From the IMG/VR virus record IMGVR_UViG_2579779149_000006: a stretch of 24,488 bases of DNA. One strand, 5' to 3'. How positions within the stretch are numbered: the stretch's first letter is position 1; every line of letters starts with the position of its first letter. The notes beneath the pieces are model-generated. The model was not told where the DNA came from and did not search any database. It saw only the letters and a program-made list of their open reading frames with translations. A program made the translations under genes and the position numbers. This stretch comes from a virus. Its lineage: Duplodnaviria > Heunggongvirae > Uroviricota > Caudoviricetes. Shown piece after piece: positions 1 through 20,881 of the stretch.

Positions 1-636
1 TTATTTTCGTAAAAAAATCGACGCCCTATCCGGGTTTACTTTACATAGATGAGAAAGATATAGCGCCCTTCGATTAAATTTGCCTTCAGTAAGGTCATCA
101 ATGTTTTTCCTGAATGGGTACTTAATCCGTGCAGCTATGTCAAAGTCACTAATGCTTGCATGAGCTTTGGTAAGTTTAGCTATCCCATAAGTGCCATAGC
201 CAAAGTAGCAACAGGATATATATGCTATGCAGATATCATCTGCTGTTGTTGCTTTCCTGATAAGAATGGCTAATATTTGCTCTCTTATTTTTCTTCGAAC
301 TGTTTTCTCATATCTCTTAGTTATTGTTCTAACAAACTGTTGGTCTATAGTACTTGCGCCTTGATGAATGTTTTTAAATAATCTCAGATATATAGTTCTT
401 AAAATAGCAACTGGATCAACTCCCCTGTGTAATAGTTGCCGATGATCCTCAGCCACTCTTAATATATCAATTAAAGATAAAGATATAGATCTTTCACTTA
501 TCGAACTAAGCCTTATATAATCAATACATTTATAATAATCTTCCATAATACTTTTAACCCTGAATTTAAAAACCATTTCTGCCAATAGCAAGTATGGCAA
601 TGACAGTAAGGTAATCAAAAAGCGCTTCGCTGCCAT
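1..636 (-). CDS. GT51-family (monofunctional peptidoglycan glycosyltransferase-like) membrane-anchored protein, ~211 aa
   Basis: ORF 1..672 with stop TAA at 1-3. The track start at 672 is a TTG; first in-frame ATG is at 634-636 with AGGAG 3 nt upstream. N-terminal hydrophobic anchor RFLITLLSLPYLLLA. Motifs AEDHRQLLHRGVD, GASTIDQQ, RKIREQ and YFGYGTYG match GT51 motifs (EDxxFxxHxG, GxSTIxQQ, RKxxE, glycine-rich YFG). AT-rich, unlike the flanking P2 genes. Confidence 0.6.
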   Translation of the reverse strand: MAAKRFLITLLSLPYLLLAEMVFKFRVKSIMEDYYKCIDYIRLSSISERSISLSLIDILRVAEDHRQLLHRGVDPVAILRTIYLRLFKNIHQGASTIDQQFVRTITKRYEKTVRRKIREQILAILIRKATTADDICIAYISCCYFGYGTYGIAKLTKAHASISDFDIAARIKYPFRKNIDDLTEGKFNRRALYLSHLCKVNPDRASIFLRK

Positions 637-1163
637 TTCACGTCTCCTGATGTATCTGCAGCGGTGGACCAAAATTTGCCATGCATAGCATCTGCATTCA
701 CCTTTTGGAAATACAGCAAAATGGTATAACTCCTTAACTCACCTTCCATTTTTATATTCAATGAGGCATGATTTTTCCTTAAGTAATTTCTCTTAATCAC
801 CCCTCGAACCTCTCCAATACTTCTATGCTTACCAGTGTATGGTCTTATATTATTATTGTTTTCAACGTCTTTTGTTTTCTCAATAAACCCTTCAATATTA
901 TTGTTGTCACATATTAAAGTCAGTGTATAAAACGTTTTTAAATTCAAGTAAGGATTATACGCAGATTTTAGTGTTTTACATTCAACTTCAAAGACGCCCG
1001 AAAAATTTGGTGGCGGTTTAATATATTCTTTGAATATAAAAATCAATACAGCCGCAATAAGAGTAGCAACAGCACCACTTAAGATTTGATTTGTGGAAAT
1101 AAAGGTTAGAGATGGCTCAAGCCATTCCCAAAATATGTTGAAAAAATCAGTAAATTTATTCAT
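615..1163 (-). CDS. hypothetical single-pass membrane protein, 182 aa, no recognisable domain
   Basis: ATG at 1161-1163, stop TGA at 615-617. Predicted TM helix ILSGAVATLIAAVLIFIF near the N-terminus. The 3' end overlaps the downstream GT51-like gene by 22 nt (translational coupling). AT-rich, with a 280-bp AT-rich leader at 1164-1441. Confidence 0.5.
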   Translation of the reverse strand: MNKFTDFFNIFWEWLEPSLTFISTNQILSGAVATLIAAVLIFIFKEYIKPPPNFSGVFEVECKTLKSAYNPYLNLKTFYTLTLICDNNNIEGFIEKTKDVENNNNIRPYTGKHRSIGEVRGVIKRNYLRKNHASLNIKMEGELRSYTILLYFQKVNADAMHGKFWSTAADTSGDVKWQRSAF

Positions 1164-1664
1164 AAATTTCTTTTGATAGTATGTTTTTTATATGATGTTA
1201 CATTTTTGAGAAAAAAGCAACTTCGCCGATTAAAAACTATCTCGCTGGAATTTATGGGCATCATGTTATGAATACATTCTTATCCCATAGGGAATAAAAC
1301 CCTATCTATAGAATAAAAATCCAAATTTTATCTTAATAAATCAGATAAAAGATACTTATACTACAAAGGTACTTGTGTAAGATCAAACTTTTAATCCTAT
1401 AAGTTATAGATTGAAGCAACTGTGACTTATAGTGCGCACACTTAAGAATCTCCGATGACGATGGTAGCAGGAGACAACTTTTGACAACTCACTCCTATTA
1501 CCAACTTACTGACTTGCTCCGCGTTGAGAGATTTATAGTTATGCCAGCACTGTCCGCTTCTGGCACATTGCGGAAGGGCTAACGGCCCGGAGTAAGTGAG
1601 TAACGGATGTTTGCAAGCACTCTTACTGCTGACAATGATCGCATCCAAGATAAAATAGGTGGTG

Positions 1665-2180
1665 TCAAGGTACAGGTTCACCAATATAAGTGTGTGTGCA
1701 GCAACGACATGTCACCTTAACGTCATCTCTTGTGATTGAAAGGTTTACCTGTTGCAGAATTCCATTCTCATCAACAAACAGACCTGGGTAAAAACTGCTT
1801 TCACCAATGCAGACTAAATCCCTTCGCTGATGCTCATGTAGCGCGACCAACCAGAATACCGGCTCGGTGGTATCAAGACGTCCACATACTTCGCTGAATA
1901 TTTCATTCCACGGCTTGCCAATCTCTTTGATCAGAAAATAAAACAACGGTGTGTAGTCTCGGCCACGCTTCTGTCTGCTATGCATTGTCTCGCGCTTTAC
2001 CAGTAGCTCATCTCCGACTTTTTTGCGATTTCGTTCCCACCGATACTCAGCACCCGGATTATTAGAATGGTGCCGCGTCGTCGTGTTGACGCTGCGATAT
2101 AGTTTACGGGACTTATTCTGCTGATGAATACGCATAGCTCGATCTCGTACATCCTTTCTTTTGTGGGCCAGTAGCCCCAT
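1665..2180 (-). CDS. hypothetical protein, 171 aa (uncertain; possibly a decayed gene)
   Basis: ATG at 2178-2180 with AAGG 5 nt upstream. Basic N-terminus and a CxCC cluster at the C-terminus. The 1442-2356 interval is open in three overlapping minus-strand frames, so the coding assignment is ambiguous. Confidence 0.3.
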   Translation of the reverse strand: MGLLAHKRKDVRDRAMRIHQQNKSRKLYRSVNTTTRHHSNNPGAEYRWERNRKKVGDELLVKRETMHSRQKRGRDYTPLFYFLIKEIGKPWNEIFSEVCGRLDTTEPVFWLVALHEHQRRDLVCIGESSFYPGLFVDENGILQQVNLSITRDDVKVTCRCCTHTYIGEPVP

Positions 2181-2366
2181 TCAGACCTTGTGTTACTGTA
2201 TAAAAAATGAACACCCTTAAAGGCTGTATCATTCTGCTCAAATACCATCCTACTGACAACTACCAAAGGTCGGATTCTGGCACGGAGCGGACAATCAAGT
2301 AGAACTGAAGGCCCGCTATGTGCGAAAACAGACAGACACAGATTGATCACAAACATACCTGAACCA

Positions 2367-3296
2367 TCAGGATTTTATATCCTTGTGTGGCTCTAATCCT
2401 TCAGAAAGGACTTTATCAAATGCAGCATATTGCCTTTGTAATTTACTTTCACATTCATACAGACTCTTTAAACTAACATCATCCATAGATTGAAAGAGTC
2501 TTTTGTTATCAACTAAATAGGAGTATGCATTAAAAATAGAAACATCCATTATATCTTTCAGTTCTTCATCAGATAGTTTAGTCTTTTTACTTAAATGCTT
2601 AATCACATGTGACTGCAATGCATTTGCGCGAACCATGGCGGGAGGATATTTGCTATTCTTCCCTTCCAATTTACATAGAAAATTAAAGAAAAAAAATATT
2701 GATGTTAAAGATAAACTAACAAGTGTTTTCTCTTCTATTTTTTTCTCCGGGGCCTTTTTTATTGTATTTAAGACGACATCTGCAACAAAGTATGCTGAGA
2801 ATACATCTGCATCATACTCCATTAATGTTTTAATCTGATCTTCACTAAAATCTTCATCGACTACATTGTACCCCATTGAATAAACTTGGTAATCACCAAT
2901 CAGGTTTATTTCTTTACTTTTGGCTAATGATAAGTGTCCACGAGCGACATGTCCAAGTTCATGACCGAAAATATGGTGCCAAATAAAGACACACCCTAAC
3001 GCAACTGGAGCTTCCTTTTCTTTCAAGTCAGGGTATTCTCTCATGAAGAATTCTATATTTTCAGAAAGAATGTCAAACGTTATTGGTATCAACCCACTCA
3101 ATAAAATAATATGGAAATTATTGTCTTTTTTTTGTGCGTGAGCATTAAGGTTAAAATCGTCCTTAATGTGCAGAGCTATTTTTTTACCATCCTCTTCAAT
3201 AGCGGAGTTTATCTCTATCAATCCTTTTTTGAAGGTATCGTAAACAGGCAAGAAAAAACCACTTTCTATTTTCGAAATTTCATCACGGGTCATCAT
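2367..3296 (-). CDS. M78 (ImmA/IrrE-like, DUF955) zinc-metallopeptidase-domain protein, 309 aa
   Basis: Tandem ATG at 3291-3296 with AAGGTGG SD 5 nt upstream. HExxH motif in FGHELGHVARGH plus a downstream acidic/aromatic motif EYDADVFSAYFV, resembling the ImmA/IrrE third ligand region. Strongly AT-rich, with a poly-A/T tract inside the gene. Confidence 0.6.
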   Translation of the reverse strand: MMTRDEISKIESGFFLPVYDTFKKGLIEINSAIEEDGKKIALHIKDDFNLNAHAQKKDNNFHIILLSGLIPITFDILSENIEFFMREYPDLKEKEAPVALGCVFIWHHIFGHELGHVARGHLSLAKSKEINLIGDYQVYSMGYNVVDEDFSEDQIKTLMEYDADVFSAYFVADVVLNTIKKAPEKKIEEKTLVSLSLTSIFFFFNFLCKLEGKNSKYPPAMVRANALQSHVIKHLSKKTKLSDEELKDIMDVSIFNAYSYLVDNKRLFQSMDDVSLKSLYECESKLQRQYAAFDKVLSEGLEPHKDIKS

Positions 3297-3495
3297 ATTT
3301 CCACCTTTAACATGAAATCTAATTCTAATTGATAGGTCTACTTAGTTTCGCTCATTGTACTATTTTATTAAAGTGGGTTGAAGGTTACATTTTTATATAG
3401 CATGTCTACTGTCCCTTTGTGGCACAGAGCGGACTGTCAGATTAGTTTTTACTCTGTGCCATAGATGAGTAATCTCACACCAGATCTAATACGAT

Positions 3496-4074
3496 TTATT
3501 GTGGCATTTCAGGCCATTCTATATCCGGAGCATCTTCCGGCTGAACGCGATTCAGTAGCACACGGTATTTTTTCCAGTGTGTCAGACTTAACTTTTCTTC
3601 CTCGGTAGCCATATCTAAATCGACAGCATCCTGCAGCGTGGCAATAATTTCACCTGCATATGCAATCAGCTCTTTCTTCTGAGAGTCAGCCGCTCTGACA
3701 AGCGCATCACGCTCTGCATTCTCATCATTCACCCACGCATTTCCGTTCCATTTCTGATAATCCCCATCCGGGGAAATGGCTGTCACGTCTGGAGGTAATG
3801 CGCCAAGTTCAGAAATATAAATGGCTGCTCCTGTTTTTGTTTCATAGACAGTCTTTCCACGATGGTCTTCCACCAGATCCCATTTCATTTCATCTGCATT
3901 GAAAACGGCGGCAAAACCCACCGGAATATCTGGAGGTGCAATGTCTGTACTGTTTGCAGGAAGACCTGTATGCGGCGGAATATATGCGTCACTTTCGCCA
4001 ATAAATTCATTGGTTCCATCAAGTAAATTGAAAACGCGGATAGTTTGTGTCTCTGCACTCATTCTGAAAGTCAT
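3496..4074 (-). CDS. G: tail fibre assembly chaperone (P2 gpG-like), 192 aa
   Basis: ATG at 4072-4074 overlaps the H stop (TAATG). Lies immediately downstream of the tail fibre gene. Sequence has typical Tfa features (N-terminal MxxxMSAET... and WNGNAWV). Confidence 0.85.
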
Positions 4075-16488: not shown

Positions 16489-17522
16489 TGAGCAAGAAAA
16501 AAGGGAAAACACCGCAACCTGCGGCAAAAACAATGACCGCCAGCGCCCCGAAAATGGAGGCATTCACCTTTGGCGAGCCGGTGCCGGTACTCGACCGCCG
16601 TGATATTCTGGATTACGTCGAGTGCATCAGTAACGGCAGATGGTATGAGCCGCCGGTCAGCTTTACCGGTCTGGCGAAAAGCCTGCGTGCTGCCGTGCAT
16701 CACAGCTCGCCGATTTACGTTAAACGCAATATTCTGGCTTCAACGTTTATTCCGCATCCGTGGCTTTCTCAGCAGGATTTCAGCCGCTTTGTGCTGGATT
16801 TTCTGGTGTTCGGCAATGCGTTTCTGGAAAAGCGTTACAGCACCACCGGCAAGGTCATCAGACTGGAAACCTCACCGGCAAAATATACCCGCCGTGGCGT
16901 GGAGGAGGATGTTTACTGGTGGGTGCCTTCCTTCAACGAGCCGACAGCCTTCGCACCTGGCTCCGTGTTTCATCTGCTGGAGCCGGATATTAATCAGGAG
17001 CTGTACGGCCTGCCGGAATATCTGAGCGCCCTTAATTCTGCCTGGCTGAATGAGTCAGCCACGCTGTTCCGCCGCAAGTATTACGAAAACGGCGCACATG
17101 CCGGATACATCATGTACGTCACCGATGCCGTGCAGGACCGCAACGATATCGAAATGCTTCGCGAAAACATGGTTAAGTCGAAAGGCCGCAATAACTTTAA
17201 AAATCTGTTTCTCTATGCACCACAGGGGAAAGCCGACGGCATTAAAATTATCCCGCTCAGTGAAGTGGCAACGAAGGACGATTTTTTTAATATCAAAAAA
17301 GCCAGTGCCGCTGACCTGCTGGACGCACACCGCATCCCCTTTCAGTTGATGGGTGGCAAGCCGGAGAACGTCGGGTCGCTGGGTGATATTGAGAAAGTGG
17401 CAAAGGTCTTTGTCCGCAATGAGCTTATCCCGTTACAGGACAGGATTCGGGAAATAAACGGCTGGCTTGGTCAGGAAGTCATCCGCTTTAAAAACTACTC
17501 ACTGGACACTGACAACGGCTGA
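16488..17522 (+). CDS. Q: portal (capsid vertex) protein Q, 344 aa
   Basis: ATG at 16488-16490. 344 aa, as P2 Q. Followed by a terminator and the cos region. Confidence 0.9.
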   Translation: MSKKKGKTPQPAAKTMTASAPKMEAFTFGEPVPVLDRRDILDYVECISNGRWYEPPVSFTGLAKSLRAAVHHSSPIYVKRNILASTFIPHPWLSQQDFSRFVLDFLVFGNAFLEKRYSTTGKVIRLETSPAKYTRRGVEEDVYWWVPSFNEPTAFAPGSVFHLLEPDINQELYGLPEYLSALNSAWLNESATLFRRKYYENGAHAGYIMYVTDAVQDRNDIEMLRENMVKSKGRNNFKNLFLYAPQGKADGIKIIPLSEVATKDDFFNIKKASAADLLDAHRIPFQLMGGKPENVGSLGDIEKVAKVFVRNELIPLQDRIREINGWLGQEVIRFKNYSLDTDNG

Positions 17523-17526
17523 ACAT

Positions 17527-17549
17527 CGCCGCCTGCGGGCGGCTTTTTT
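17527..17549 (+). terminator. rho-independent terminator after Q
   Basis: GC-rich hairpin GCCGCC-tgcg-GGCGGC followed by TTTTTT, immediately 3' of the Q stop. Confidence 0.6.
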
Positions 17550-17691
17550 ACACCCCGTCATCACGCACTCACACGCTCACCACCGCACAAAACACCCCGC
17601 AGACACACCAACGCCTCAACTGGCAGACTAAACGCCATCACGACGCGCTCAGACGCTGAAAAAATAAAATCAGCACCACCGCCAGCGCGCA

Positions 17692-17710
17692 GTGCTTTCC
17701 CCGCCTCGCC
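17692..17710. other. cos cohesive-end sequence (19-mer)
   Basis: GTGCTTTCCCCGCCTCGCC is the reverse complement of GGCGAGGCGGGGAAAGCAC, which I recall as the P2/186 19-nt cohesive end. It sits 170 bp past the portal gene, where P2 cos is expected. The match is from memory, not a database check. Confidence 0.55.
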
Positions 17711-17994
17711 CGCCCGCTTCACGTGGCGGTTTTAATGCAGTTGCATAGATACTATGGATCCGCACCAGTCCTGACCGCACGCAGCCTGAACGGACATCCC
17801 CAGCGCATGCAAAAACATTCACTTGTTGCATGCATAGCTTTTTAAGTACGCCATACCGCAACTGTACATTTTTAAGCAATTGGCAACTTTAAAAAATTTA
17901 CATTGCTTTCAAGACCTTATCATCCGTAGTCTCTGTTTTTTACTTTGAGCTACATCAATAAAATCTCAAACATGTTTAATGCAAAGCCCTTGTT

Positions 17995-18048
17995 ACACAA
18001 CATAGAATGTATGTCTAGAAACAACGACATACTATATGTTGTGTTTTT
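17995..18048 (+). terminator. long imperfect AT-rich hairpin followed by a T-run (terminator-like or structured RNA 3' end)
   Basis: Arms ACACAACATA (17995-18004) and TATGTC (18010-18015) pair with GACATA (18026-18031) and TATGTTGTGT (18035-18044); loop 18016-18025; followed by TTTT at 18045-18048. Confidence 0.3.
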
Positions 18049-18188
18049 CCGGCTCTCTGTTCGGTGATATGCCAAATCACTTTGCGTTTAAACAGAGCAT
18101 TATTTCAGGGCAAGACTTCGCTCAAAAGTCATTCCACCTAAGAAGCGCATATACCGGTGGAAGTTGCCCTCTACTTACAGGAGGCAAT

Positions 18189-18302
18189 ATGAAGAAATGC
18201 TATTACTGCATTCTCGTTCTGGCCCTCTTTGGCTATCCAAACGGTAGTCCGAGTGGTTTGTCAGTAAACGTCAGTAATATCAATGTCAGCATTATGCTTT
18301 AA
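18189..18302 (+). CDS. candidate small protein, 37 aa (MKKCYYCILVLALFGYPNGSPSGLSVNVSNINVSIML)
   Basis: ATG at 18189 preceded by a consensus AGGAGG (18179-18184, 4-nt spacer). Signal-peptide-like N-terminus. Stop followed within 12 nt by a strong terminator. The longer 88-aa ORF from 18036 begins on a non-ATG codon. Confidence 0.3.
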   Translation: MKKCYYCILVLALFGYPNGSPSGLSVNVSNINVSIML

Positions 18303-18314
18303 TATGCTTCAAAC

Positions 18315-18344
18315 AAAAAAACCACCTGCCAGGGTGGTTTTTTT
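18315..18344. terminator. bidirectional rho-independent terminator
   Basis: AAAAAAA-CCACCT-gcca-GGGTGG-TTTTTTT: a GC stem flanked by a 7-A run and a 7-T run. It can terminate the plus-strand small ORF and the leftward early operon coming out of A. Confidence 0.7.
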
Positions 18345-18604
18345 GCGCCCATCATCAATACGATGAAAGACTGACAAGACTTCGCTCAAGACGAATTATG
18401 CGTCGACATAAGGTTACCCGCAATGATTTTATTAGACTAAATGGATGGCCTTTTATGACCCGGATCAAACGGCTGTCCTTACCGACATGCTAGTCACTCA
18501 ATAGCATTTAGCCTTCTAATTCAGCATGCTATTGACCTTCTGCTGCCCCATAACTGCTCCGCATAAGCCATTCAATGCCATATCAAATCACGTTGTGTTT
18601 TTAC

Positions 18605-20881
18605 TCAAATGGGTAACGAGAACCCCGGCCACTCATCAGCAACCGGATACGTGAATTTTTTCCCGTCATAATTTACGGTCGCGCCACGCGCCAGCGCCTC
18701 AAGCTCCCATCGTTGCGGCCTGATACCGTTCTGAGCGAGGTCAACGCGGATACGGGTAATTTGCAATCGTTCAGACCTGGTCAGTCTGGCAGATGGTGCA
18801 ATTTCATGCGGTTTTAACGGGATTCCGTTTCTTTGCTGACGATTTGGTGTTCTCAGTCCGTGTTTTAATGCGCCCCTGAGCACCATCACGACCTCCGGGT
18901 CACTCCATTCGATAACACCGTCATCTACCAGATTAAGCACTGCTGCGGCGTGCTCAGAAGGTGTAGGAGCCGGTAACGAAGTATCACCACCGGTGAGCTT
19001 TCCACAGTTATTGACAGGACTCCGAGGCGCGGCGATGCCGCTTTTTAAAGTCAAAGGCTCAACGACCGGCACTTTCGGCACAATGCGCCAGTCCGTGGTT
19101 CTGGTGATATGAATATGACGCGCGCCGAGATGCGGTGCGTAAATGCCGACCACTCTCTCGACTTCTTCCTCGTACTCGTTAACGTCATCCGACGGGCTAC
19201 GGGCAACCCTGACAGTCTGACAATCGCGCGGGACATTTGCCCCACCCTGCGCGCTGATATACAACGCAAAATCACCACTGTCTGCGGCGGCGCGTGCAGC
19301 CTCGACGCGTTCGTCAAACTCATCAGCAATGCTGACGCCGCGAGGCAGTTTGCGTAGTTCACGGTAAGCCCCCATTGTCGGCAGGCCAACCGTTTTAAAT
19401 TGTGGGATACGCCACGTTGACGCCCATGCGGTAACAGCCGCAGCAGTGTCTTTCAGCGGTCTGCCGGTATCGTTATCGAGCTGACCATCCAGTGCATAGC
19501 CATCGATGTTTTTTGAGATGTATTTCGCGATATATCCCGCAGCACCGCCCCGGTTAAGGTGTTTTGCCTGAAAACGGTTTCGCGCGGCTCCTCTTTCGTC
19601 GCCATCCTCTTTGAGCGCATAACGACGCATGATTTCAATAATCTGGTTACGCTGGCGTGGATTACAAAAAAGCATCATATGCCAGTGCGGCGTTCCGTCG
19701 TGGTGTGGCTCGACGACACGCAAACCGTAGACCTGTAAATCATTATCCTTGAATGCCGTGCGCATCAGGCTCCAGATGCGGCAGAGATAACGCTGCGCAT
19801 CCTTTGGATTAAATGCCTCATCGTTCCAGCCGTGATTAAGCTGAACGGTTTTACTTTCGCCTTTTCTGACCTGGCGTGTCGGGTGATACTTTGACGGCGC
19901 GGTCAGCGTGATAAACATCCCCACATCACCCTCTGCGGCGGCGTAACGCTCAATACCGGCAATGGTGTTCATCAGCTCCATCCGGCGAATTTCAGGATTA
20001 GAAATACTGCCCATCACCTTACTGATAAGGTCGATGCGCTCGCCGGTTTCCCTGTTTTCAAGGTCACACGATTTAAGAAATTCCAGATTTGCCTGGCGGC
20101 GCGCACGCACATCACGAATGGCATGTTTACTGGCATAAGGAGAACGGTCTTTATTGACCTCCCCGACAGCAATCAGTAACGCCTCATGCCAGCGCATACG
20201 CTGGCCTTTAAGCTGATGAGTCCACCACTCATCGTTAAACAGACGGGCAATGGCAGAATATGCCTGCCTCGTGGTCATCTGTCCTTTACGGTATTTTTTC
20301 CAGTAGAGCGGGGAAATATTGAAAGCACGTGCAGCGCCAGCAACATGACCATACAGGTGAGCCTGCGCCTCATCCGTAAACAGCGATTCTTTTTCGCCAT
20401 GCGCATCCACCCAGGCATCGCAGAGTTCCTCATACATCATGAAAAGCTGCGATGAGATACGGGCTGCAAATTTTTTCAGCTCCTTGTCATTCATCCCCGG
20501 CAGACGCGCATAATGGTCACGCTCTGCCAGAAACAGCAACGACGCGTCGGTGTTCATTTCATGGCGCTGATTCACACGCTCAATGCGCGGCCATAAACGA
20601 CGCTGAAAAGTGGATGTGAGGAAATAAAACCCGTGCACCGGGCTTTTATTGCGCCGGATGTAGTCATAGCGTGAAGTAAACAGCGAGCGCAAAAAGTAAG
20701 GCAGGCGGTTAATCGTGGATAAAACACCTTGCACCTGACGCATCTCGTCACGTGTAAGGGGTCTTTCGCGCCCGACGGCCTCGCGTGGCGCGTTCCATGC
20801 ATAAGCACCGGTAAACGCCTTACCGGTGCCTGCAGCAAATGCTGAAGGAGGGACAAAACGCCCGGAGGCTTTAACGGCCAT
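18605..20881 (-). CDS. A: replication initiation protein A (rolling-circle HUH endonuclease), about 758 aa
   Basis: Start taken at ATG 20879-20881 (MAVKASGRF...); the track start at 20923 is TTG. HUH-type motif GTPHWHMMLF and a tyrosine pair AGYIAKYISK. Length close to P2 A (761 aa). Confidence 0.9.
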   Translation of the reverse strand: MAVKASGRFVPPSAFAAGTGKAFTGAYAWNAPREAVGRERPLTRDEMRQVQGVLSTINRLPYFLRSLFTSRYDYIRRNKSPVHGFYFLTSTFQRRLWPRIERVNQRHEMNTDASLLFLAERDHYARLPGMNDKELKKFAARISSQLFMMYEELCDAWVDAHGEKESLFTDEAQAHLYGHVAGAARAFNISPLYWKKYRKGQMTTRQAYSAIARLFNDEWWTHQLKGQRMRWHEALLIAVGEVNKDRSPYASKHAIRDVRARRQANLEFLKSCDLENRETGERIDLISKVMGSISNPEIRRMELMNTIAGIERYAAAEGDVGMFITLTAPSKYHPTRQVRKGESKTVQLNHGWNDEAFNPKDAQRYLCRIWSLMRTAFKDNDLQVYGLRVVEPHHDGTPHWHMMLFCNPRQRNQIIEIMRRYALKEDGDERGAARNRFQAKHLNRGGAAGYIAKYISKNIDGYALDGQLDNDTGRPLKDTAAAVTAWASTWRIPQFKTVGLPTMGAYRELRKLPRGVSIADEFDERVEAARAAADSGDFALYISAQGGANVPRDCQTVRVARSPSDDVNEYEEEVERVVGIYAPHLGARHIHITRTTDWRIVPKVPVVEPLTLKSGIAAPRSPVNNCGKLTGGDTSLPAPTPSEHAAAVLNLVDDGVIEWSDPEVVMVLRGALKHGLRTPNRQQRNGIPLKPHEIAPSARLTRSERLQITRIRVDLAQNGIRPQRWELEALARGATVNYDGKKFTYPVADEWPGFSLPI

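Follow-up and report, generated by a model that had tools for sequence, protein, structure and literature searches.

The window analysed here, the whole 24,488-nt stretch of IMG/VR virus record IMGVR_UViG_2579779149_000006, carries a P2-like prophage in reversed orientation relative to the P2 map, and between its cohesive-end site (cos) and its replication gene A lies a short cassette with a 37-codon open reading frame (ORF) and a convergent gene for a small RNA (sRNA) that is predicted to pair with the mRNA of the peptide. Position 17522 is the end of portal gene Q and 18605 that of the minus-strand gene A (772 aa), which leaves a cos–A interval of 894 bp at 17711-18604. This interval is the gpA–cos variable locus of the prophage, the "tin/old" hotspot defined as lying between gpA and cos/gpQ (Rousset et al., 2022, PMC9122126). 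A first-pass annotation, made from the sequence alone, had placed it at this hotspot and had named the case to be checked by alignment, that the interval is conserved backbone of P2 itself. By BLAST, P2 (NC_001895) matches this part of the window only at 17692-17739 (98% identity) and 18618-19000 (94%), so that homology stops at 17739 and resumes at 18618, and in P2 the corresponding space carries orf91, tin, and old: the interval is not P2 backbone. The same annotation had noted that the interval is under 0.9 kb and holds no gene of the size of tin or old, and indeed the longest ORF wholly inside it has 88 codons (18036-18302); a minus-strand ORF of 69 codons (17670-17879) overlaps cos. Megablast likewise separates the two parts of the region, with 17523-17760 found as cos backbone in 75 phage records and ~17840-18604 in only three, at 86-88% identity.

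The peptide gene, the sRNA gene, and their pairing

Across the family of related cassettes, the small ORF keeps its start, stop, and frame at a length of 37, 38, or 39 codons, with insertions and deletions in frame. Of its variable sites, 15 are at first, 11 at second, and 26 at third codon positions, and pairwise ratios of nonsynonymous to synonymous divergence (dN/dS) range from 0.13 to 0.35. The ORF, which the first-pass annotation had listed as led by a Shine-Dalgarno (SD) sequence, is thus coding and under purifying selection. In the peptide, a basic N-terminus is followed by ~13 hydrophobic residues, and beyond a Pro/Gly break comes a polar, β-strand-like tail with alternating hydrophobic and polar residues. 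The ORF mostly escapes annotation: a search with the 88-aa read-through ORF returned only three near-identical database entries, so gene callers must rarely call it, and none of the 60 E. coli RefSeq records listed, annotated by the Prokaryotic Genome Annotation Pipeline (PGAP), has an annotated feature at the cassette.

Facing the ORF is an sRNA gene whose anatomy is conserved (Table 1). When phage, Klebsiella, Enterobacter, and Salmonella versions are compared, its promoter has a -35 of TTGCG(G/T), a -10 of CATAAT, and always a 17-nt spacer, the sequence of which varies. With the start set 7-8 nt downstream of the -10 box, the predicted RNA begins with a single-stranded seed, GAGCGAAGUCUUG, which is the reverse complement of the second copy of a direct repeat (18375-18387). 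Its predicted fold is alike in 13 homologues, and the middle hairpin varies in sequence by lineage and keeps its fold, with eight pairs changed on both sides. The bidirectional terminator, correctly recognized as such in the first-pass annotation, varies among phage and plasmid versions by one loop base at most, and it ends both convergent predicted transcripts. A consensus terminator scan missed it, probably because the stem runs through the T run, and Rfam cmscan of 17300-18900 (E ≤ 1) gave only sub-threshold matches to RNAI and Phe_leader, from the terminator hairpin alone. A promoter-like site on the plus strand at 18371-18399 was rejected because its -35 is unconserved in relatives. Upstream of the sRNA promoter, centred ~74.5 nt from the predicted sRNA start, the palindrome-like sequence TTGAT-CCGG-GTCAT (reverse complement of 18455-18468) is invariant in phage and plasmid versions; it resembles a pair of FNR/CRP-family half-sites and could be where a regulator of the sRNA promoter binds.

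The two genes share a 15-nt direct repeat, CAAGACTTCGCTCAA, which the first-pass annotation had also noted and which lies at 18111-18125 and 18375-18389; by simple arithmetic, ~4e-4 chance repeats of 15-mers are expected in 0.9 kb. With the two units facing each other, a repeat in direct orientation on the DNA gives the minus-strand RNA complementarity to the mRNA of the plus strand. In all members of the family the complementarity of seed and target is perfect over 13-17 nt (in the window, the seed complements 18111-18123). RNAduplex places the best duplex on copy 1 in 7/7 members tested, at -29 to -37 kcal/mol, compared with -17.7 ± 2.4 kcal/mol for shuffled seeds, and in the same number the end of the target lies 64-66 nt from the AUG. 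In the E. coli, Klebsiella, and Enterobacter versions the two repeat copies are AAGACTTCGCTC, whereas two Salmonella plasmids (L041 and L042; in L041 at 1704-1715 and 1973-1984) have AAGGCTTTGCTC at both, with the same two substitutions in each copy. An sRNA of the Salmonella type set against an mRNA of the window or Klebsiella type gives only ~-20 kcal/mol, near the shuffled mean. This covariation of seed and target is the main evidence that pairing is likely to be under selection, and the repeat is, as far as these comparisons can tell, an mRNA target and an sRNA seed, not a recombination scar.

The minus-strand RNA could also be read as acting mainly in trans on host or phage genes, or as the 3′ end of the early (A) operon, with the match to the leader of the peptide mRNA being secondary. 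sRNAs with 5′ seeds often have several targets, and because no terminator lies between gene A and the sRNA region (no convincing one for the gene A transcript was found in 18501-18604), read-through on the same strand is expected. P2 early transcription should traverse the sRNA sequence and stop at the bidirectional terminator, and such read-through could supply extra antitoxin-sense RNA during lytic growth. However, the sRNA promoter, seed, and target are all retained in the plasmid versions, which lack an upstream gene A, and the complement of the seed matches only the two repeat copies within the window; seed and target also change together. We consider a mainly trans-acting or operon-end role very unlikely.

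Table 1. Coordinates of the features in and around the cos–A interval.
Feature	Position	Strand	Details
cos, 19-nt cohesive end	17692-17710		GTGCTTTCCCCGCCTCGCC; exact reverse complement of P2 cos
cos with 29 bp of cos flank	17692-17739		cos-side stretch; sole cos-side part common to P2; 98% identical to P2 right end
Variable spacer, cos flank to cassette	17740-17889		no P2 match; highest diversity among relatives; site of extra cargo in relatives
nrdDG-type promoter of peptide mRNA	17891-18014	+	FNR site 2, FNR site 1-like, -10 TAGAAT (18003-18008)
Two NrdR-box-like palindromes	17995-18010, 18029-18044		ACACAACATAGAATGT, ATACTATATGTTGTGT; flank -10 and start; outer halves are the arms of an inverted repeat
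Predicted peptide mRNA, ~330 nt	18016-18346	+	start from promoter geometry; end at intrinsic terminator
Two-tier stem-loop in 5′ untranslated region	18055-18097	+	CTCTGTT/AACAGAG outer, GGTGAT/ATCACT inner, GCCA in loop
Predicted sRNA target, repeat copy 1, in 5′ untranslated region	18109-18125	+	3′ end 65 nt upstream of AUG
SD sequence and 37-codon ORF	18179-18302	+	SD AGGAGG (18179-18184); ORF 18189-18302, encoding MKKCYYCILVLALFGYPNGSPSGLSVNVSNINVSIML
Bidirectional intrinsic terminator	18314-18345		arms 18314-18326/18333-18345, 13/13 complementary; A7 and T7 flanks
Predicted antisense sRNA, ~72 nt	18387→18315	-	seed, middle hairpin (18348-18373), terminator
sRNA promoter	18395-18423	-	-10 CATAAT (18395-18400), -35 TTGCGG (18418-18423), as reverse complements
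Conserved block upstream of sRNA promoter	18424-18500		right end of plasmid homology; invariant alignment columns
Phage-specific tail, cassette to gene A stop	18501-18604		common to L001/L002, absent from plasmids

Extent and distribution of the cassette

Alignment with plasmid versions shows homology from ~17890 to ~18500, which defines a unit of ~610 bp. Of 5,426 complete E. coli genomes, 149 carry the unit (in identical sequence in E. coli W and many other chromosomes), which also occurs in 28 P2-like contigs of IMG/VR recovered by a pattern scan and in 423 plasmid records recovered by DNA search. With the peptide as query, tblastn finds full-length 37-aa homologues of 62-68% identity, their ORF unannotated, on ~390 Klebsiella and Enterobacter plasmids, which are mostly of conjugative IncFIB/IncFII types, and a scan of species-representative genomes adds Kluyvera georgiana and Citrobacter freundii. 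Plasmid pKPN3 of K. pneumoniae MGH 78578 is without the cassette, which removes the dRNA-seq/RIL-seq study of that strain as a source of experimental evidence. The architecture is kept at ~70% DNA identity in phages and plasmids across at least four genera, and among 25 distinct versions the minimum of nucleotide diversity falls at 18090-18410, below the adjacent end of gene A.

Within P2-like prophages, the distance from the cassette to an A-proximal landmark is fixed at 255 nt in 30/30 contigs, and the distance from cos to the terminator takes discrete values: 606 nt in 15 loci including the window, ~699 in 7, ~2235 in 2, and ~3262 in 5. The cassette is therefore resident beside A, with other cargo inserted on the cos side, and in most cases it is the sole occupant of the hotspot in P2-like prophages.

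The first-pass annotation had left a choice between an empty site and a locus for a small peptide or RNA function. On the first of these readings, a hotspot that is empty or has decayed, the ORF, the repeat, and the hairpins would be remnants of recombination, and the terminator would serve to insulate cos and the late genes from read-through of the early operon. It is true that PGAP annotates nothing here, that the nrdD-like segment upstream of the ORF could be captured host DNA, that the bidirectional terminator is the only obvious one for the gene A transcript, and that a partial duplicate of the leader stem-loop at 18571-18600 hints at rearrangement. Set against these points are an architecture maintained at the identity level and across the genera given above, purifying selection on the ORF, compensatory changes in the RNA stems and in target and seed, and a diversity lower than that of the gene A end. 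A conserved cassette that also resides on plasmids makes the empty-site alternative extremely improbable, and the conserved coding ORF and sRNA gene favor the small peptide or RNA function.

Several observations concern the surroundings of the cassette and its relatives. The duplicate at 18571-18600 adjoins the gene A stop and is a 30-nt partial copy, 73% identical, of positions 18060-18089 of the stem-loop; it could stem from an older or duplicated version of the cassette, or mark a recombination joint. On the other side, the variable spacer contains a small palindrome at 17805-17833, GCATGCAAAAA / TTGTTGCATGC, with 11-nt arms, 91% complementary, and a 7-nt loop. Two P2-like phages (OQ383618 and OU784750) carry extra cargo between cassette and cos (L001 978-2129 and L002 326-1502), including a Peptidase_M78/ImmA-like gene (Pfam 3.8e-21; PADLOC capP 1e-30) beside an ORF of 159-199 aa. 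A tie between the cassette and a neighboring 486-bp gene, seen in L001 and L035, was rejected since the two proteins are unrelated. The Salmonella IncF plasmids L041 and L042 have a diverged sister cassette that encodes a 39-aa peptide, MDRRDCMCLFILTLISHLITGQESWMVYLNHISLTVQFY, and adjoins an Rpn-family nuclease gene. In many complete E. coli chromosome records (e.g. NZ_CP119008.1 2278-3121), the cassette lies on the minus strand at 2278-3121 or 2278-3042, so the 2,277-nt P2 gene A stands at the very start of these records, which seem to have been rotated to the prophage replication gene instead of dnaA. The prophage of the window was considered as Wφ, the P2-like phage described for E. coli W, and this was rejected, Wφ having a methyltransferase and other genes at this locus. 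Farther away, positions 1-3500 of the window form a low-GC block (0.31-0.35, compared with ~0.56 in the structural genes) to the left of the tail-fibre genes H and G, where P2 has its second hotspot (Z/fun); the minus-strand ORFs at 2367-3296, 1665-2180, and 615-1163 have no Pfam or PADLOC match, and the ORF at 1-672 has a transglycosylase domain.

An nrdDG-type promoter and a structured leader

The segment upstream of the peptide gene resembles a host promoter. Positions 17891-18010 are ~80% identical over ~100 bp to the treC–nrdD intergenic region, found in 5,426/5,426 E. coli genomes and also in Salmonella, and the homology stops just past the -10 box. On this alignment, the promoter of the cassette is homologous to the chromosomal nrdDG promoter. 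FNR site 2, TTGAGCTACATCAA at 17945-17958, is identical to a published E. coli nrdDG oligonucleotide, and a weaker FNR site 1-like sequence, TTAATGCAAAGCCC, follows at 17976-17989. The FNR sites of E. coli nrdDG are centred at -64.5 and -33.5 (PMC10425943); the corresponding centres here, 17951.5 and 17982.5, are 31 bp apart and both put +1 at 18016, and the -10 hexamer independently puts it at 18015. The promoter is kept in the plasmid versions, and the predicted mRNA would presumably be under FNR control. FNR site 2 also tracks the type of host: in the P2 version it takes the form seen in E. coli nrdD, TTGAGCTACATCAA, and the Salmonella, Klebsiella, and Enterobacter plasmid promoters (L033, L035, L041, and L043) have TTGTTC…(A/G)TCAA, which is of Salmonella nrdD type. 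This match suggests co-divergence or repeated exchange with the nrdD promoter of the host.

The -10 box and the predicted start are straddled by an inverted repeat with 10-nt arms (17995-18004/18035-18044), 100% complementary and 30 nt apart. The first-pass annotation had called this a terminator-like hairpin; the inverted repeat is there, but because the T run that follows is unconserved in relatives (it reads GTTGTTCA in L001/L002) a terminator function is unlikely. The arms are instead the outer halves of two palindromes which, scored against what we take to be the NrdR-box consensus, reach 13/16 at 17995-18010 and 14/16 at 18029-18044, 34 bp apart. Shuffled sequences score at least 13 in 12/2,000 cases and 14 in 1/2,000, and the K-12 and Salmonella nrdD boxes are picked up by this scoring too. 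A weaker alternative box, at 11/16, would give a spacing of 32 bp, and in plasmid versions the boxes are weaker or 42 bp apart; the known NrdR operator consists of tandem boxes ~31-32 bp apart (PMC2892513). The NrdR-box assignment is tentative, and NrdR control of the promoter is plausible. The downstream half of 17995-18044 also forms the 5′-terminal hairpin of the predicted mRNA, the sequence of which differs between lineages.

The predicted 5′ untranslated region (5′UTR) is ~174 nt long and structured. Its two-tier stem-loop is an RNAalifold consensus structure with compensatory changes, appearing as CCCGGA…TCCGGG with GTGCT…AGCAC in the Salmonella plasmid and as GGTGGT…ACCAC in Citrobacter. 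Downstream of the sRNA target the leader has a further stem-loop and then a helix between the SD and an anti-SD, and the SD is mostly paired (probability of being unpaired 0.02-0.36 in partition-function folds). A simple switch in which binding of the sRNA closes the SD was rejected, as the SD is mostly paired with or without a blocked target; for the same reason, the route of repression cannot be read from simple folding. The position of the target, 64-66 nt from the AUG, points to an upstream loading or activating element and not to occlusion of the ribosome-binding site (RBS). Two tertiary contacts can be proposed speculatively, a pseudoknot between the GCCA of the stem-loop and a UGGC just 5′ of the target, which involves invariant bases without covariation, and an AUAUGC/GCAUAU loop–loop pair that is specific to the window.

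Relation to known systems and proposed function

In design the cassette comes closest to timP/TimR (ryfA/STnc2070; RyfA1/RyfB1 in Shigella). TimP is an inner-membrane toxin of 38-41 aa with an uncleaved signal sequence (Leu at −3), and pairing of an sRNA, through its 5′ end, with the 5′UTR represses it (PMC7667032); the timP SD is trapped in a stem-loop, and translation requires a long-range fold (PMC11228461). In both systems the protein is 37-41 aa long: its N-terminus is basic, its hydrophobic segment starts with CxCI(L/V)(V/L), and its tail is polar and rich in Asn/Ser. The hydrophobic segment also looks like a signal peptide in both, its one plausible cleavage site having Leu at −3, and the N-termini resemble each other (MKIRCFCIVLIV in TimP; MNRLCLCILVLT and MKKCYYCILVLA in the cassette family). 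Within the family, C7 and I8 hold the same positions in all members, and Cys5 is present in the Klebsiella versions. A toxin mRNA of ~300-330 nt, a long structured 5′UTR, and a sequestered SD (as predicted here) are further points of likeness, and the target ends 64 nt before the AUG in K-12 timP and 64-66 nt before it in the cassette family. In contrast, timR is upstream and divergent, whereas the sRNA gene of the cassette is downstream and convergent and shares a bidirectional terminator with the mRNA; timP/TimR occupies a fixed chromosomal locus in enterobacteria, whereas the cassette is found on P2-like prophages and IncF-type plasmids; and only the cassette has a promoter homologous to that of nrdDG. 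Homology to TimP was not significant by profile comparison. The cassette may thus be regarded as TimP/TimR-like in operation and of type I toxin–antitoxin (TA) type by its anatomy, not as a demonstrated member of the TimP family.

The manner of pairing also recalls tisB/IstR-1 and zorO/OrzO, in which the sRNA pairs through a short region (~13-20 nt) far upstream of the RBS of the toxin. In these systems, as in the cassette, the pairing region is a direct repeat in the DNA carried by opposite transcription units, which is different from antisense RNAs that overlap fully. Unlike the cassette, tisB/IstR-1 and zorO/OrzO have divergent sRNA genes and α-helical toxins without a signal-like N-terminus, and the tisB promoter is LexA-controlled and that of zorO uncharacterised, in contrast to the nrdD-like promoter here. 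No sequence similarity to either was detected with Pfam and NCBIfam, and the peptide has no match at E ≤ 10 to the Pfam and NCBIfam toxin models for Hok/Sok and other type I toxins. The nrdDG promoters of E. coli and Salmonella share with that of the cassette, besides the identity and the FNR features described above, a -10 of TAGAAT/TAAAAT and NrdR-box-like palindromes; the differences are that the cassette encodes a peptide and not nrdD, that its FNR site 1 is weakened, and that its NrdR-like boxes lie ~10-12 bp further downstream. With other cargo of the P2 gpA–cos hotspot it shares its position and a content that varies among close relatives, but the described cargo consists of protein-coding defence systems, and the cassette has no annotated gene or PADLOC match. 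No prior description of it was found in the literature searched.

Three features expected of a type I TA locus are present: a small ORF with an RBS for a hydrophobic or membrane-type peptide, an adjacent predicted sRNA gene with promoter and terminator, and predicted pairing maintained in evolution. We think it probable that the segment ~17890-18500 is a self-contained, mobile module of this type. The nrdDG-derived promoter, with its FNR sites and probable NrdR boxes, would drive an mRNA of ~330 nt from ~18016, the structured leader of which would hold the SD paired, and the encoded 37-residue peptide would insert in the inner membrane and be harmful if overmade. The opposite-strand promoter, constitutive in appearance, would yield the ~72-nt sRNA ending at the common terminator. 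The 5′ end of this sRNA would pair with a 13-17-nt stretch of the 5′UTR that ends 65 nt before the AUG, and so block an upstream ribosome-loading element and not the RBS; such an element could be a standby site or, as in timP, a long-range fold that activates translation.

A number of results weigh against this interpretation. Both transcript start sites are predictions, as is transcription from them, and ViennaRNA folds show that blocking the target leaves the accessibility of the SD unchanged. Covariation comes from one diverged lineage because the seed is nearly invariant, and the sample amounts to two substitutions in two near-identical plasmids. In the window version, FNR site 1 is degraded (TTAAT…AGCCC). 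The hydrophobic stretch of ~13 residues is short for a transmembrane helix, the peptide has no match in Pfam or NCBIfam (E ≤ 10) or PADLOC, and its insertion in the inner membrane and harm in excess are predictions, toxicity being argued by analogy alone. As for kinship with timP, Rfam RF00126 (ryfA) has no match in 17300-18900 at E ≤ 1 and NCBIfam gives none, and hhalign of the family profile against TimP yields a probability of 5% and P = 0.0076, over 10 N-terminal residues.

These points leave room for a non-toxic small membrane protein under sRNA control, the sRNA then being an ordinary regulator. The peptide might be a lysogenic-conversion or accessory factor made under anaerobic conditions or at low deoxynucleoside triphosphate (dNTP) levels, such as one that modulates a membrane complex or excludes superinfection. 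The structural evidence as a whole fits such a role equally well, the promoter is regulated and nrdD-like and not constitutive, the hydrophobic segment is signal-peptide-like, and TimP itself permits growth at native levels and may act apart from toxicity (PMC7667032). However, a solitary unit on large conjugative plasmids and in prophage hotspots, with tight predicted sequestration from translation, is the typical pattern of addiction and exclusion modules, and for this reason we consider a non-toxin peptide unlikely, if still worth serious consideration.

If the cassette is the type I TA-type module proposed here, its distribution, as a self-contained unit standing alone both on conjugative plasmids and in the defence hotspot of a prophage, would fit a function in element maintenance (post-segregational killing) or in phage exclusion. 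A more ambitious proposal, which we put forward as a doubtful one, is a mobile family of type I TA systems that uses the anaerobic ribonucleotide reductase promoter of the host and serves as a defence or exclusion device in the hotspot and as an addiction module on plasmids. Toxin mRNA would then rise with active FNR and with the lifting of NrdR repression, that is, in anoxia and when the dNTP/ATP pool is disturbed, and the trigger would be a collapse of the sRNA supply or the hijacking of nucleotide metabolism by an infecting phage.

The cassette is invisible to surveys of P2 and P4 hotspots because these count annotated genes, and to them the locus looks empty; the same cassette goes unannotated on ~400 clinical Klebsiella plasmids, mostly conjugative IncFIB/IncFII. 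If it is a working toxin–antisense pair, it would be a mobile relative, by design, of timP/TimR, and, if the reading of its promoter is also true, a case of a mobile element that borrows an FNR/NrdR-controlled promoter of its host to time the expression of a toxin. It offers a compact and testable candidate for a system of prophage and plasmid maintenance, or of phage exclusion, in gut-like anaerobic conditions.

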